From contig OX597816.1 in assembly GCA_951406725.2 (NCBI GenBank), forward strand, positions 29,202,001 to 29,266,000: a DNA stretch of 64,000 bases, read 5' to 3'. Numbering within the stretch: position 1 is the stretch's first letter; the number at the start of each line of letters is the position of its first letter. Below, piece after piece: positions 31,261 to 59,426 of the stretch. The stretch is from Octopus vulgaris (taxonomy: Eukaryota). Made by a program: the position numbers and the translations under genes. Below the pieces are notes generated by a model, which saw only the letters and a list, made by a program, of their open reading frames with translations, was not told the DNA's origin and searched no databases.

Positions 31261-31667
31261 GCGTAGGAGTGGCTGTGTGGTAAGTAGCTTGCTTACCAAC
31301 CATATGGTTCCGGGTTCAGTCCCACTGCGTGGCACCTTGGGCAAGTGTCTTCTACTATAGTCTCGGGCCGACCAAAGCCTTGTGAGTGGATTTGGTAGAC
31401 GGAAACTGAAAGAAGCCCGTCGTATATATGTATATATATGTATGTGCGTGAATATGTTTGTGTGTTTGCGTTTGACCCCCAACATCGCTTGACAACCGAT
31501 GGTGGTCTATTTACGTCCCCGTAACTTAGCGGTTCGGCAAAAGGAACTGATGCAATAAGTACTAGGCTTACAAAGAATAAGTTATGGGATCGATTTGCTC
31601 GACTAAATGCGGTGCCCCAGCATGGCCACAGTCACATGACTGAAACAAGTAAAAGAGTAAAGAGTAA
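31261..31667 (+). mobile_element. SINE family A, full length
   Basis: tRNA-like head (gggttcagtccc), CORE-like ggcaccttgggcaagtgtctt, internal microsatellite, LINE-like tail. TSD taagatagc near 31254 and 31665. Splits the gypsy protease frame. Confidence 0.92.
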
Positions 31668-37350: not shown

Positions 37351-38911
37351 CTGCCTCGTGGACACCCATTTCGTTCAGTGGGGACAATATCGTTCTGCTC
37401 CATAAATTTGTATGTTTTCTCCACGAGGATTAACGTTCTCATACTCCAAATTCTTCCTAATTCAAATTTTAAGGGAATTGATATTATTATTGTTGTTGTT
37501 GTTTCTTTTAGCCGAGTGAGGTGCGTTTATTTTTTACGGTACAGTTGTGAGTTATGAAGCCATTTTTACATATGTAAAAAATTCTACTGGTATATGAGTA
37601 GTATTAAAATGCAAAAATATTTGTTTACTGCTCAAAGTAGCTCAAAATAATATCAACAAATAAGATACGACCATTTGAGTAACATATAACAGACACTAAC
37701 AGAAATACGGTTATAAATAAACGTTCCAAAAATATGAATGATGTATATGGCGTGTTTGTCTGAAATCAGAGTTCATTCAATGATGCGCAAAAAAAAACAA
37801 ACAGTGTTCTCTAAAGATTTATGACTGAAATTTAGCCTGTGATATATGTGGCGATAGAAGCCATGCAATAGAGTTTTGACCAGAGAAAATTAGAGGAAAA
37901 AGTAGAATTTTATAACTATGTTGATAAAACAAACATCAACACAGACATTGCACAACGCAATTTCATCACACACTCAATAACATGCCATCACATAAAGGAA
38001 TCTTGCCTCCCTGTCTCTGCCTGGACGTCCATGGCTGCTGCGTCTGAAAGTATAGACACAGTGCTTACTCTCGCCTCTCACCAATTTTGTGTCCTTTGAT
38101 TTCAGGAATATATTCTGCTTAACGCCTGTTGTCTCATATCTGAAGACCTATCCACGATCACCTCCACTTCGTACCACATATCATAGTAAGGTTGGGTATG
38201 GAACGTGGCGTGAATGGTTTATGGATAGGGCCGACCACCAATACTTGTTTGTTCTCCACAAACCGGCTGACCTTGTTAGAGTTTTCTAATACTGCATCTA
38301 TGTAATATACTGCAAAATCTGTTCGTTACTTCAGATTATTTGCCACCTACTGGAATCATTCAATATCATACGTTCAACCTGTGAATTTTGTCTCCTGACG
38401 TCCCTGAAATACATATTGACTCATGAGACAGTTCTGCGGAAGATGAAACTCTAAGCATTCTTCTCACGCGAACGAGGATGCAAGAAGATTGTATCAGCAT
38501 ATGTAGAAGGCATTACCATAATATTGTCGGACAGCAAGTATATAAATGTGATTGGCAGGAGAGTCACATCAACCTCCTCCAAACACATATGGGTGAAGCT
38601 TAACGTCAGAACAGACAGGTCAATGCCGCCAAGGAACCTGGATTGCTTCCGTCCTCCAGAAGGAATGACACTGCTTTGAGTGACATGCCGGCTGGACAAT
38701 CTCACTCACTACCTGAGAAATAAATCTCTATAGATGAGACAGAAGTGATGGGCATCTTCATTATTTCCACCCCACCACCACCCCCATTACCGACTGACCG
38801 TCGTTCTTTCTTCTAATTGACTCCTGATCGGGATGGAGCATCTGCTCCTCTAGTTTTAGGGGAGTGTGACGGTATTAATCTGATCACTCACGTGATATGA
38901 TATGGCTGAAT

Positions 38912-48872: not shown

Positions 48873-48908
48873 CGCAGGAGTGCCTGTGTGGCAAGAAGCT
48901 TGCTTCCC
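48873..48908 (+). mobile_element. SINE A head, interrupted
   Basis: cgcaggagtgcctgtgtggcaagaagcttgcttccc; a matching SINE tail reappears at ~50457-50535. Confidence 0.8.
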
Positions 48909-50455
48909 ACTGCGCTTGCGTTGTTGTCAGTGTTGTTCGTACCACTGATAGAAGTCACCACGCAGGTTTTGAGCTGGTAAAATAGTGATTAAAACAGGAG
49001 CTCAATTCTAAGGTAAGACCTTTGTTTTTTTGGTCCAGTGGGGGTCTGTTGTTTGCCGTTATTATTTTTTTTACAAACAAGAAGTCCTCACTGGATTCTG
49101 GACTTTGGTCTGTCTACAGTTGAGTGAATAGTTTTTCTCACTTAATTGTTAGAATTATTCTTTGGGGGCGTATCTCTCTTCCCAAAATTTGTTTGCTTTT
49201 AGTGAATAGTTTTGTTTTTCAAAAAATTGTGAAAATACACCGAAGATACAACTTCTGTTACCAATTTTTGTGGAAGCTGAGTTCTAAGTTGTGGCGTTCA
49301 GGGTTCAAGACGGATTACCAAATAGGCCTGGAATACCGAGTGGCCAGAAGATTTTTTGCTTGTTGTTTTTTTTAAACTGTAGACTATTTTTTTCCTTCTT
49401 CAATCTTTGTTATGACTTTCTTTTTATTGAACTCTTTTTTCTTTTCTTCCTTCCTTTTTGTTCTGACATTCTTTTGATTCTTTTCTTTTTCTTCTTCTTC
49501 TGAATTTTTATCTGAACTGTTTTTGGACTTTTTATTTAAAAAAAAAAACATGACAAAGAACAAGAACAATGTTTTCGAGTGGCAAATTGTCCCACCAAAA
49601 CAGTGTTTGAAAGTCTGTGAAGAGAGGACGGTGGTGTTGAGAACTTACTCTAAGTCGCTCGACACCATCACCCTATTTCAAAAGAATCTTATCGGAAGGG
49701 AGATGGCAGAGTATCTGCCACCAACTATTGAATTCATCTGCAGGGGGTGGGGTCAAATACGCAACTGTGTGGTTGCTATTTGACACCCCTGAGGAGGCTC
49801 GCATTTTTGTGAGCCAGCCCTTGGAGGGCAGAGTGATTTTGTTTCTTCCCATATATTTTGGGAGGAAGTTGACAAGGGCTTGGGTCTGTGTTTTGCCACC
49901 CGGAATAGAACCCGAGTTGACAGAGGACACTATCCGCCGGAGTATGGGTAGCAGCGAAGCCAAGCTCCTCAATGTAAAAATTTTACCTGCGGCTGATTGG
50001 GTGGGGTCAAAAGCGGTCTTGAGCCTGTGGGCCGATCAGACGAAATTTGAAAATGATCGGGTGCCGGTACCTGGTGATACTTGAGAGTCGTACCCCAGGT
50101 GTCATGGGTGCCCTGAGCCTGGCAACATAAAGAAAAATTGTCCCTAGGAACAAATTAAGGTCTTGGAGCAGTTGGTTGAAAGCTCTTTAGAAGAGGGAAC
50201 GGAGGTGGCCGCCGAGGATGTGGAGAACGCTTCAAAGAAGGGCCGCAAGAGGAATGTGAGCAACAATGGATGATCACTGAAGGATCCTAGGGATGAGGGA
50301 GGGGAAGCGAATCTCCCGGTAACGGAGGAGACGTACCCTCTCTTAAGTGAGAAGGAAAAAAGAGGAAGACGAAGAGAAACGGGACATTGTAACGGAATGT
50401 CCCGGAACCTCGTCGGTTGTGCCACCGGCCGGTGAAGAAGCACCGTCGGTTGGGG
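48909..50455 (+). mobile_element. ORF1-type LINE-like element, copy 1 (3' part missing)
   Basis: ~640-bp leader, then a frameshifted ORF from ATG 49550 (VVLRTYSKSL...GVKYATV.LLFDTPEEARIF...CHGCPEPGNIKKNC) homologous to 56000-57873. Confidence 0.8.
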
Positions 50456-50830
50456 TTGACGAAAACCCTCTAAAACAGTACTCCAGCAAGGCCGCAGTCA
50501 AATGACTGAAGCAAGTAAAAGAAAAATGAATAAAGGTATACACACAGAAAAGTGAAGAGTAGTCGATATCTTTAAAGAGTTTAGAATGTATAATCTGAAA
50601 GTAAAATATTGGTAGTGTCCCTAACGTTTTACCGTTGACCAGCTTCGCCAGGCTGTGTTCTATTTGTGTGTGGTACTTGAGAACCACTTAGAAGCGAAGT
50701 AACAGACACACACGTATATACACGGTGTTCGAGCTAAATCTGACAGTCTGCACACAAGGAAAAGAAAGCTTGACTCTTTGAGCTTGTACCACTATCACAA
50801 ACGGCTCCGGTAACTTCTGCAGTATTTCTA

Positions 50831-54745: not shown

Positions 54746-55577
54746 TTCATCTTTCTTTCACTTACTTCAATTCACTGCGATTCAGCTGTACTAATTTTAT
54801 CGATCCTATATAGATGAAAAGCATTATTGATCTCGGCAGGATTTGAAATACGAGCTCAGTAAGTCTGTATAATTTTCGTGAAGCATTCTGTACAACTACG
54901 TAAACCACGCAGTAAAATTAATGCCACCTATAATGCCAATTTGCAACATGTTATTTAAATGCTAAAGCCATTACAACTAGTACAAGAGCGATAGTCCATT
55001 GACAATCAGTGGTGTTTTCTATTAACCTACTTAGTATCATTATAGCTCTATGTCCATATATGGCTTCAGCTTATATAGAAGATGTTAACTAGATAATTTA
55101 TGCACGCCTACGTGAACATATATCAAACTTTAATAGTGTGGCAGTTGCAGTCTCTCTATGTCATATATCTTTACTGAAAATACCTTCAATGTTTTAATGT
55201 GAACAAATAATTTAATGTTTTATTGCATCTGTATGAACACGTGCGAGTGTGTGTTTATGTGTGCACATATACATATACATATACATACAAACATATATAC
55301 ACACATAGTTACATATTATATATATATATATATATATCCACATATATTCGCATGTAGACGTAAAAAACATATACAAATTTGATTGAAATACACATAATCA
55401 TCATAATAAATGACCACTTGCTTTTTAAACATACCTGCATTTGTATTCGTACACATACGCACATCTCAGTTTTCTTAGTTACCTTGCTCCTGCAGGGAAA
55501 CGTGTATGCGAGCAAAATATATATACATGTATGAGTGTGTGAACTTCAGCATATATATATACATATATGAATATACC

Positions 55578-55999
55578 CTTTTACTCTCTTTTACTCTTTT
55601 ACTTGTTTCAGTCATTTGAATGCGGCCATGCTGGAGCACCGCCTTTAGCCGAGAAAATCGACCCCAGGATTTATCGTTTGTAAGCCTAGTACCTATTCTA
55701 CCTAGTACCTATTCTATCGTTTTCTGTTGTCGAACCGCTAAGTTACGGGGACGTAAACACACCAGCATCGGTTGACAAGCGATGTTGGGGAGGGGGGATA
55801 AACACAGTCACTCAAACACACACACATATACATATTCATATATACTACAGGCTTCTTTCATATATACTACAGGCTTCTTTCGTCTACCAAATCCACTCAC
55901 AAGTCTTTGGTCGGCTCGAGGCTATAGTAGAAGACACCTGCCAAGATGCCACACAGTGGGACTGAACCCGGAACCATGTGGATGGTAAGCAAGCTACTT
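55578..55999 (-). mobile_element. SINE family A body; its head is displaced to 57874-57912
   Basis: Tail and core match family A. The sequence breaks at ggtaagcaagctactt and resumes at 57874. Confidence 0.9.
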
Positions 56000-57873
56000 T
56001 ATTTTTAAAAATGTTGGCATAAAGTCATGATACAGAGTAGCTTGTGGGCTAGACAAAAAAACGCCCGCCGATTCTTTGCTTCTCTAAAACATAATTTTTT
56101 ACACAAGAAACAAACCGAGTTATTGAACCTCTTACTTCCGTTTTACAATTATTGGACTTTAGTCAATTTACGAATTGAGGCGCTGAGCCTCTATTACACT
56201 TAAACACTATAACACTGAGGCTTTTAAACTCTTGTCAATTTTCCTCCACAACATCTCTTGTGCCCGTATACTCCGCCAATACCCACGCCCCGTTTAAAAC
56301 TAAGGCGGGCTCCGAGTCGGCGTCGCCCGGCCACAAGCAATATTCCTCTTTGAGTTCCTCTTTGTCTTCCTCTAGGGTCGAGGTAGTCATTTCTACCGTT
56401 GGCGCCACAACCATCTGAAAATGGTGTCTCTTTCCCTGCCGGTGGCACAACGGACAATGTTACGGCTTCCTCTGTCGGTGGCACGATTCCCACCGAAGAG
56501 GCCTTGGGAGATGCCGGCAGTACACTGCATGCCTCCAGCACTGTCTCATGCTTTTTTCTCTTTTTCTCTTTTATCTTTGGTGCGGAAGGGGTTGGCTCCT
56601 TCGCCATAACCGCAGGAACCGCGCTTTTCTCCCGCAACGCCGGTATCATTGTTGCTCCACTTCTTCCTTTTCATCCCTTTTTTCGGGGCAGGTCACTTCC
56701 CCTCCTCCATCTCTCCTTCCGGAGGAGGAGGGGGTTCTTCCACAACTAACTGCTCCAGCACCCTGCTCTGGTCCTTGGGACAGTTCTTCTTAATGCGGCC
56801 AGGCTCAAGGCACAGATGGCACTTGGGTGGAGGGCGTCCCTCAAGAATCACCGGATACCTGGACCCGGCTATCCTCAAAACATCTGGGAACATCAGATCA
56901 TCGTCTGATTGGGTCCACAGGGTCAAAACTGCTTTTCACCCCACCCAATCAGCTGCAGGCATTATTTTAACATTCAACAGCTTGGCTCCGCTTCCACCCA
57001 GATCCTCGGCGGATAGTATCCTCTATTCCTGGTGGCAGCCCACAGACCCATGCTCTTGTCAATTTCCCCCCACGATATGTGGGCAGAAACAGAATTTTCT
57101 CCCCTTGCAGGGGCAGGCTCGCGAAGATGCGTGCCTCCTCAGGGGTATCAAATAGCAACCGCACTGTTGCATATTTGACACCGCTTGTAATAAACTTGAT
57201 GGTTGCCAGGTATTCTTCCAACATCTTCTCAATATCTACTTGAGATAACACAGTGATGGTGTAGAGGGACTTGGAATATGTCCTCAACACCACTATTCTC
57301 TCATTAAGGTCTCTTATCCACTGCTTGGGGAGCACAATTTCCCTCTCCAAGACAGTGTTTTTGCATTTTGTTGCCATGCTTGCAAAAAAATTAAGAAAAA
57401 TATTCGACACAAGATCCAAAATGTTCCAAATAAAATGTCCAATATATTCACATAAAAGAACAGAAAGACAGAGCAGAGAAAAGAACGAAGGAAAACAGTT
57501 CAATTCACGTCACTCAGGTAATCCACAAAAATACAGTTAGTTACTCCAGTTCACCGTCGTAGCACACAAACATTCCTCCACAAATTCATAAATTTTACAG
57601 ATTTTGGTATCGAGACACGCCCACAAAGCCAACAATTCTCACAGCTAAGCGAGTCACTCGACGCGACCGCAGCAGACAAATGTCTAGTACCCAGTGAAGA
57701 TTTCTTATTCGAGAAAAAACAATAGCAAAAAATAAAAACTCCCAACCGATTCCCTAAAAAGACAGATGCCCCCTTTGCAGTCTTTTATTCAAGACGGCTT
57801 CCAAGCACGTTAGTCACTTACACGGGTATTCACTCTCGTAAGTGACTGACAAACTGACGCATGCGAAAGCGAG
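56000..57873 (-). mobile_element. ORF1-only LINE-like element, copy 2 (1874 bp between TSDs)
   Basis: 16-bp TSD ggtaagcaagYtactt at 55984-55999 and 57874-57889. ~495-bp leader, one frameshifted ORF, ~230-bp 3' UTR ending ttttaaaaataa. No RT or endonuclease. Confidence 0.85.
56235..57377 (-). pseudogene. L1/Tx1-type ORF1-like protein with zinc knuckle (frameshifted)
   Basis: MATKCKN...VRLLFDTPEEARIF...TRAWVCGLPPGI...YPVILEGRPPPKCHLCLEPGRIKKNCP (CX2CX4[H to R]X4C), then a K-rich and low-complexity tail. Confidence 0.75.
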
Positions 57874-57911
57874 GGTAAGCAAGTTACTTACCAAAAGTCC
57901 ACTTCTACACC

Positions 57912-57943
<32 letters not shown>

Positions 57944-57948
57944 AATAA

Positions 57949-57999
<51 letters not shown>

Positions 58000-58004
<5 letters not shown>

Positions 58005-58195
58005 TATATAGAAGGAGCTTCTACAGGACTAGAACTGTTTCATTCAAGAGAAATCATCAGGAGCTTCCTGATGATTTCTCTTGAATGAAACAGTTCTAGT
58101 CCTGTAGAAGCTCCTTCTATATAATAAATTAATTTTACTCTGCTATGTATTGAGTACCTTATTTACTGTGGTTAACCCCGAATCAACCCGGGACC

Positions 58196-58242: not shown

Positions 58243-59426
58243 TGGTTGGACAAAATAATGGAAACATCTAGCGTCATAGCATCATAATTTTGATATATTT
58301 ATAAAACCGTCAAAATCTTGCTTGTTTTTATGTTTTTTTAAAATTTATTATTAATGTTGCGTAATATGTTTTGCTAAAATTGCAGTTTCTTTTCAGATAT
58401 CATCGAAAAAATATAATTACATTTCATTAAAATGACAAATCTATCGAACTTTCAAAGCGGCCAAAATGTTGGTGCCGCTATGAAAGGCGCTAGCGTAACG
58501 AAAATACCCGAAATGTTTGGTGTAACAAGAAGTACTCTCTCCGAAGTAATGACAGCCTTTGAGAAAGAGGGAAAATCTTCGTCGTCGAAACAAAACTTCA
58601 GAAGAAAAGCAAAACTTTGAGAAAGAGACTCTCGGACTGTCGAAATATTAGAAAGGATCACAAAGTACGGCTCCCAAAATTACTGCAGGGCTTAATGATC
58701 CACTTTCCATTAAAGTTTTTTGCTGAGAGCTGCACGAAGCCGGATTTCACGGGAGAACTGCAATCAGAAAACCACTGCTTTCAAAAACAAATGTTGCAAA
58801 GTGTTTACAGTAGAGTAAAAACCTACAGAATTGGTCCCTAGAGAAGTGGAAGATTGTTATTTTCTCGGACGAGTCATCCTTTGCCTTATTTCCGACCACC
58901 GAGTATACATGTGGAGACAACCAAAAGAAGCATTTGGCCAAGATTGCCTTCTTCCTGCTGTTAAACATGCAGGAGCATCGGTGATGATTGGAGTGGGAAG
59001 GGGCTATAGCTTGCAAGCCCGGCGGGCCAGTGGTTTCCCTTCATGGCAGATTTAATAGTCGACTATTCAAGCATTTTATATGATCAAATTCATCCTATGT
59101 TTGCAGAACTGTTTCTGGAGGTAAATGCAATCTTTCAGGATGATAATGCACCAATTCACACATCTAAAGTTTTTCCTGAATGGCCCGATCTACATTCTAG
59201 TGAAGTTGAACATATTATCTGGCCACCACAGCCACCAGATCATTTATAGTGTATTTTAGAAAAACAATTAAGGAGTCGATATCGTCCACCATCATCCCTA
59301 CAGGAACTGGAGACTCTTTTGGCTGAAGAATGGACAAAAATTATTTTGGAAGCAATTCAAACTTTGTATGAGTCCTTACCTCGAAGAATTCAAGCTATAA
59401 TTATTGCCACAGCGGGTCGTACCCCA
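58240..59426 (+). mobile_element. Tc1-like transposon, defective, cut by the assembly gap
   Basis: TA|CAGTG left end; motifs FSDES, VKHAGASVM, FQDDNAPIH, WPPQPPD, LYESLPRRIQA across frameshifts. Confidence 0.9.

Follow-up and report, generated by a model that had tools for sequence, protein, structure and literature searches.

The element described here is very probably a decayed member of a large family of ORF1-only non-LTR retroelements that occupies a fixed position in the head of an abundant octopus SINE, and whose copying probably depends on ORF2 supplied in trans by an intact L1/Tx1-type LINE that uses the same site. The copy in the window (the whole 64-kb stretch of DNA analysed) is an ordinary-looking fossil of an unusual system. 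It splits a tRNA-derived SINE (Table 1), whose head lies upstream and whose body of about 410 bp lies downstream in the orientation of the element. Three uninterrupted SINEs in the window are 72-79% identical to this body, and head and body are contiguous in these empty copies. The decayed nucleotides upstream of the element resemble the heads of uninterrupted SINEs at 31262, 45654, and 46918. Two 16-mers with one mismatch between them flank the element, and the 16-mer motif has six matches in the 64-kb window as against 0.09 expected. A 1,874-bp insertion splitting a SINE in the same orientation and a 16-bp target site duplication had both been predicted from the letters of the window, and both were borne out.

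The interior of the copy is heavily decayed. ORF1 is interrupted by in-frame stops and spread over three frames in at least four pieces, which have 40-62% identity to the open 414-aa ORF1 of a young copy. The original prediction of one ORF1 with a gag-type knuckle held as far as ORF1 and knuckle remnants are concerned but not for a single open frame, and the knuckle itself has lost its histidine. The 3' end, ...TTTTTAAAAATA, has no poly(A), contrary to the A-rich end that had been proposed. Reverse transcriptase had been described as missing, in agreement with the lack of any match to the ORF2 of the candidate helper LINE (see below) inside the element. Pfam reported no domain in the ORF1 pieces of the window or in alignment A1. 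The best relatives are 75-82% identical over the 5' 1.1-1.5 kb, and the copy lacks about 130 and about 50 nt that are present in another copy (L002). Leaders vary from subfamily to subfamily of these elements. In the second family member of the window, an AAGAAG-type 16-mer is found at 48893-48908 and ORF1 remnants at 49551-50378, and the 3' junction has been lost.

Table 1. Features of the ORF1-only element, its host SINE, and a second family member in the window
Feature	Position	Strand	Remark
Upstream target duplication copy	57874-57889	-	AAGTAACTTGCTTACC
Downstream target duplication copy	55984-55999	-	AAGTAGCTTGCTTACC
Host SINE head, 5' part (A-box side), decayed, 22 nt	57890-57911	-	by likeness to other SINE heads (see text)
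ORF1-only element, old subfamily, 1,874 bp	56000-57873	-	
5' leader, 496 nt	57378-57873	-	
ORF1 remnant, at least four pieces	56259-57377	-	57377-56997, 57001-56552, 56628-56428, 56360-56259
CCHC knuckle remnant	56783-56824	-	His to Arg; intact knuckle in L178
3' terminal motif, decayed, without poly(A)	56000-56027	-	family form TGCC-N5-GGCA...AAATA
Remaining host SINE (B-box side, body, short tandem-repeat tail)	55570-55983	-	
Second family member, more decayed, same SINE position	48874-50520	+	head, 16-mer, ORF1 remnants

A LINE that could supply the missing enzyme is found at the same site. At locus L099, a C-terminal piece of an ORF2 (zf-RVT) lies in tandem to a short element. A genome search with this piece gave 150 scored matches, and all 30 of the loci returned end at the same SINE target. 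Full-length copies of this young, intact LINE are 5.44 kb long and encode an ORF1 of 467 aa and an ORF2 of 1,133 aa with Exo_endo_phos, RVT_1, and zf-RVT domains; the best PDB match of the latter is human L1 ORF2p (E 8e-67). Eight copies are 98.6-99.8% identical. The LINE and the short element have identical site, orientation, junctions, and 16-bp duplication. An APE-RT partner sharing target, duplication, and 3' terminal motif, which had been put forward as something to look for, is therefore present in the genome. Older ORF2-bearing subfamilies (75-86% identical) use the same SINE site as well, implying that a helper lineage existed when the old subfamily seen in the window was active. Judged by its APE, RT, and C-terminal zinc-binding region, the LINE is of the L1/Tx1 group; it inserts sequence-specifically into a multicopy target, a Tx1 trait, and may belong to the Tx1 clade in the narrow sense; the homologues listed bear no clade names. 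An ORF1 with RRM and CCHC is consistent with Tx1 (available part of PMC5203782).

At the DNA level the candidate helper and the short element resemble each other only in the last 35-36 nt or so. This shared 3' end consists of TGCC-N5-GGCA followed by 12-13 nt ending in AAATA, with no poly(A). It has 1,680 exact matches in the genome, compared with 18 for a reversed control. Among 67 distinct ends, pairing at the four stem positions is retained in 63, 63, 61, and 65, and the loop varies. A hairpin is plausible and not proven, since the stem is nearly invariant, compensatory changes are seen at the outer pair only, and the register is off in a few rows. The common target and 3' motif lead us to infer that the LINE mobilises the short element in trans.

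The lack of ORF2 was claimed to be a property of the family, and this is what the listed matches of the 3' motif indicate. A flank-blind sample comprised 41 of the first 49 motif matches listed (the other eight were already in the set); three more loci were picked by hand. Among the matches listed, none of 19 elements with a type-A ORF1 has an ORF2 between ORF1 and the 3' end; five elements of the sample do carry ORF2, and their ORF1, where present, is of another type. A search for ORF2 in 39 young elements (1.9-2.3 kb) gave no match. A private deletion of ORF2 in the window copy is thus rejected, as the relatives sampled are also ORF1-only. Note that a rare ORF2-bearing element with a type-A ORF1 may be missed because the genome searches score only the best candidates.

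ORF1 itself has been maintained. In a protein search, in which the best 138 of 11,953 candidates were scored, many open frames were seen; several ORF1s among the 30 loci returned have open frames of about 390-414 aa, which terminate 234-349 nt short of the 3' end. By the Nei-Gojobori method (33 stretches, 524 of 528 pairs binned), dN/dS is 0.13-0.25 in every dS bin, somewhat biased downward because the stretches were picked for open frames, and dS between subfamilies exceeds 1. On these ratios, the coding capacity of ORF1 is kept by purifying selection. The protein is predicted to have two RRMs and a CCHC knuckle: a structure model built from 51 sequences (pLDDT 92; 37 in an earlier fold from eight sequences) matches tandem RRM proteins. 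The knuckle of both ORF1s, that of the short element and that of the helper, falls just below the Pfam cut-off. The named protein homologues are from Octopus species. Contigs from four runs, whose RNA origin is no more than a guess, cover the young element, in one case nearly from end to end; these are not evidence of transcription.

The ORF1s of the LINE and the short element are homologous (E 1e-18) and only 27-29% identical. The LINE is closer to a sister LINE that targets (TC)n, with 40% ORF1 identity, and the ORF1 of the short element forms a long separate branch; therefore, the short element is not a recent deletion of the helper. Nor does it correspond to HAL1 in the strict sense of an internal deletion of an identifiable L1 with the same ORF1. 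It might instead be the product of recurrent internal deletions of a hidden or extinct autonomous element, with the young LINE a mere co-resident. Internally deleted LINE copies do occur (L099, L281, and L306), and the ORF1 divergence means that the present LINE is not the direct parent. However, ORF2 is absent from the elements with type-A ORF1 examined, ORF2-bearing elements with a visible ORF1 have the other type, young full-length copies with mutual identities of up to 99.5% have ORF1 alone, and ORF1 has been under selection across subfamilies at dS above 1. We regard this origin as improbable, and a long-lived ORF1-only family served by the LINE is preferred.

The sister LINE (L142-L150) is also young. 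Its ORF2 is about 1,138 aa long (62% in the C-terminal region), its 3' end has a small hairpin-like motif and GAAATA but no poly(A), and in nine of nine loci fetched it is followed by (TC)n. A second ORF1-only lineage (L061 and L085; 1.44-1.49 kb) shares the SINE site and the 3' motif but has another ORF1, 33-39% identical to that of the helper; a search for ORF2 in these two elements gave no match.

The host SINE may be of the Octopus OR/OK type (OK, OR1, or OR2). OR2 is mentioned in the available part of PMC4758252. The head of the host SINE is called tRNA-like by ARAGORN at a relaxed score, with no call by Rfam or by ARAGORN at default settings, and aligns best to Lys/Glu-type tRNA genes of the genome (score 56; shuffled maximum 47). 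The insertion point falls between the A-box and B-box regions of the head. Empty heads belong to three main subtypes that differ within the duplicated 16-mer (TTACC, TAACC, and AAGAAG...TTCCC). The SINE was also considered as a further client of the LINE and rejected, as its tail is a short tandem repeat without the shared 3' motif.

The original prediction allowed that the parent tRNA motif might be the target, the SINE being used merely through its resemblance to a tRNA gene. While the tRNA-like head and the small-RNA genes targeted by Tx1 relatives (PMC4494074, in part) would fit, a small sample (27 tRNA calls from 30 loci, few isotypes) lends this no support: the closest tRNA has six differences from the 19-nt target. 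In addition, all on-target junctions seen run on into a SINE body or another element, and 58,747 exact intact heads (33-nt pattern) are on offer in the genome. A tRNA gene as the real target is thus very unlikely, and the SINE head is taken as the target itself.

That the SINE head is a general target had been proposed from the single copy, and the best-scoring relatives and the listed 3' ends agree. A DNA search of the 2.8-Gb genome, in which the best 40 of 2,332 candidates were scored, yielded 30 loci including that of the window. Of the 29 relatives in this set, chosen by internal sequence, 23 have a SINE head immediately before their start; a 3' end could be recognised in 15, and 13 of these adjoin the target 16-mer. 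A common length was expected at about 1.9 kb. A common length exists, but it is 2,037-2,401 bp in 11 of the 12 relatives with both ends, and the 1.87 kb of the window copy is short for a family of about 2.0-2.3 kb. The junction pattern has 56 exact matches in the genome, mostly in other subfamilies with the identical 3' end; many of these copies are 5'-truncated, some down to 30-49 nt, with the SINE head still upstream. In the flank-blind sample of listed matches, 29 of 41 adjoin the target by a strict script test, five more adjoin visibly decayed or slipped targets, four are themselves unrelated sequence, and three could not be assigned either way. Target duplication, a fixed 3' end, and 5' truncation are hallmarks of target-primed reverse transcription (TPRT). 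Passive spread of one or a few insertions with the SINE or by segmental duplication, as seen for one 1.14-kb truncated insertion that recurs at least at eight places with upstream flanks 92-98% identical, is largely refuted as a general account and scarcely credible, since independent truncations of many lengths all retain the upstream head, a single element subfamily occurs in differing SINE subtypes, flanks beyond the SINE differ between copies, and tandem arrays mix subfamilies, and LINE with short element. The copies of the 1.14-kb insertion (L076, L077, L079-L083, and L086), all among the 56 junction matches, share their upstream flanks, which implies amplification within a larger duplicated unit.

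Head-to-tail arrays, whose units are parted by one target 16-mer, are found at L278 (G000:C1:29269600-29279430), L303, and L099, and include four short elements in a row as well as mixtures of LINE and short elements. Four other elements (L222, L223, L228, and L229) resemble the young subfamily at 96-97.5% identity beginning with position 358 but have an unrelated leader, which suggests 5' UTR replacement.

The SINE subtypes make it possible to see where the upstream copy of the duplication comes from. In one young subfamily, the 77 exact upstream junctions comprise 76 with TAAC, none with TTAC, and one with TTCC, although the search pattern admitted all three alike. Forty of these loci were fetched, and 39 have a 3' junction: 24 are TAAC on both sides, 12 are TAAC upstream and TTAC downstream, two are discordant in another way, and one is concordant and host-type. 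One element (L204) is full-length, yet its upstream copy is host-type. Mismatches between the two copies cluster at positions 10-15, with none at positions 1-6, where it should be noted that the pattern constrained the upstream copy. Four full-length LINEs in TTAC hosts likewise have TAAC upstream, three of them with a one-base slip. The controls that match the host are few: one 1.6-kb truncated LINE, in which both copies are the host variant, and one 30-nt LINE end with TTACC on either side. The paired count is relied on, because an unpaired Fisher test of upstream against downstream junction lists (P 3e-4) is confounded by a downstream pattern that also catches sister subfamilies with other leaders. 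As the upstream duplication is often donor-type, the RNA would carry target sequence at its 5' end.

A mechanism can be proposed from these observations. The leader of the short element would direct transcription, which would begin a few bases further upstream, within the duplicated target, and the element's own ORF1p, with the predicted two RRMs and knuckle, would coat the RNA in cis. The ORF2p of the helper would then bind the 3' hairpin motif in trans and nick the bottom strand at GGT^AAGTAGC. Reverse transcription would start at the last base of the RNA without poly(A), the top strand would be cut 16 bp downstream, and the end of the cDNA would anneal to the top-strand overhang, so that donor sequence would replace the final bases of the upstream duplication. 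Since the target is regenerated at each insertion, tandem arrays would result. Separation of the A and B boxes would likely silence the SINE copy through loss of its promoter.

In a wider reading, towards which we lean slightly, these elements form an undescribed three-tier parasite system that turns over jointly. The SINE would provide tens of thousands of safe landing sites for a LINE with a specialised endonuclease. At least two ancient ORF1-only lineages would exploit the LINE through a 3' hairpin of about 30 nt while retaining an ORF1p of their own that has diverged deeply. As subfamilies of LINE and half-LINE replaced one another, they would have used successive SINE subtypes, carrying the subtype sequence on the 5' end of their RNA.

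HAL1 is poly(A)-tailed and is not known to be site-specific. Non-autonomous LINEs that retain ORF1 are described as HeT-A, HAL1, and Ag-Sponge (parts of PMC5786205, PMC5753468, and PMC3627910). As in HAL1, as far as it is covered there, the octopus elements encode ORF1p only, have kept its coding capacity for long, and need ORF2 in trans. They differ from HAL1 in being site-specific in a SINE, in having no poly(A) and an apparent recognition through a short 3' motif, and in an ORF1 (predicted RRM-RRM-CCHC) that is so distant from that of the helper. HeT-A with TART/TAHRE is similar in being Gag-only and targeted, in forming head-to-tail arrays, in having ORF1 under negative selection, and in outnumbering the RT donors (available part of PMC5537684). 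In contrast, HeT-A is of the Jockey clade and is added to chromosome ends with poly(A), targeted by Gag (same source), whereas insertion of the octopus family is internal, at a nicked sequence, and leaves 16 bp duplicated.

Tx1 elements are reported to target DNA and LTR transposons, snRNA and 5S genes, and microsatellites: Tx1L is found in Tx1D, Tx1-Mar and SINEU in Mariner-N4_AMi, and Kibi and Koshi in microsatellites, and Tx1-Mar likely mobilises SINEU to its own target (excerpts of PMC4494074). In these accounts, as is proposed for octopus, an APE-type LINE is specific for a mobile element and also brings a non-autonomous partner to that target, and the (TC)n preference of the octopus sister LINE is like that of Kibi. 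Unlike in these accounts, the octopus target is a SINE head and not a DNA or LTR transposon, and the partner encodes a protein and is not a SINE. For R1, target sequence from upstream is present on full-length transcripts and anneals to the top strand, plain duplications are seen at truncated copies, and annealing of the cDNA to a top-strand overhang was proposed for the melanogaster type (available part of PMC2718515). The outcome there is a 9-bp target deletion or rearrangement (same source), while in octopus the last bases of a 16-bp duplication are overwritten, which the SINE subtype differences make readable.

Precedents exist for every ingredient; what seems not to have been described is their combination, the use of a SINE as target, and the depth of the ORF1 split. 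In an octopus repeat annotation of 2026, 13 L1-Tx1 families are listed as recently active, and the accessible portions of its text and supplementary file mention nothing on targets or ORF1-only elements (PMC13282606). No such case is found in the available parts of PMC4758252, PMC8869645, PMC9115989, PMC5035012, PMC3747384, PMC12988792, PMC5203782, and PMC3706591. The original prediction likewise knew of no description of this combination. Across the literature as far as accessible, no LINE targeting a SINE, no ORF1-only Tx1-type element, and no such SINE-targeting pair was found; Repbase or Dfam, outside this scope, could hold one.

If this account is true, sequence-specific LINEs can also use SINE heads, and HeT-A is joined by a second ORF1-only element that is targeted, from another clade. 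Why a non-autonomous LINE retains its own ORF1p, and whether an ORF1p of about 28% identity can work with the ORF2p of the helper, are testable questions because young open copies of helper and passenger exist. A natural site-specific ORF2p of the APE type, seemingly taking RNA in trans by a short 3' signal without poly(A), would be relevant to the design of RNA-templated insertion tools. One consequence for octopus genomics is that many SINE and L1-Tx1 calls are split or misread in automated annotation.

A whole-window repeat search was dominated by microsatellites. An RT remnant at 38144-38640 has 27-39% identity to the helper ORF2. Broken reading frames at about 58400-59360 look like what we take to be a Tc1/mariner transposase. 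A perfect inverted repeat (64-nt arms, 3-nt spacer) occupies 57999-58129, a short way upstream of the host SINE.
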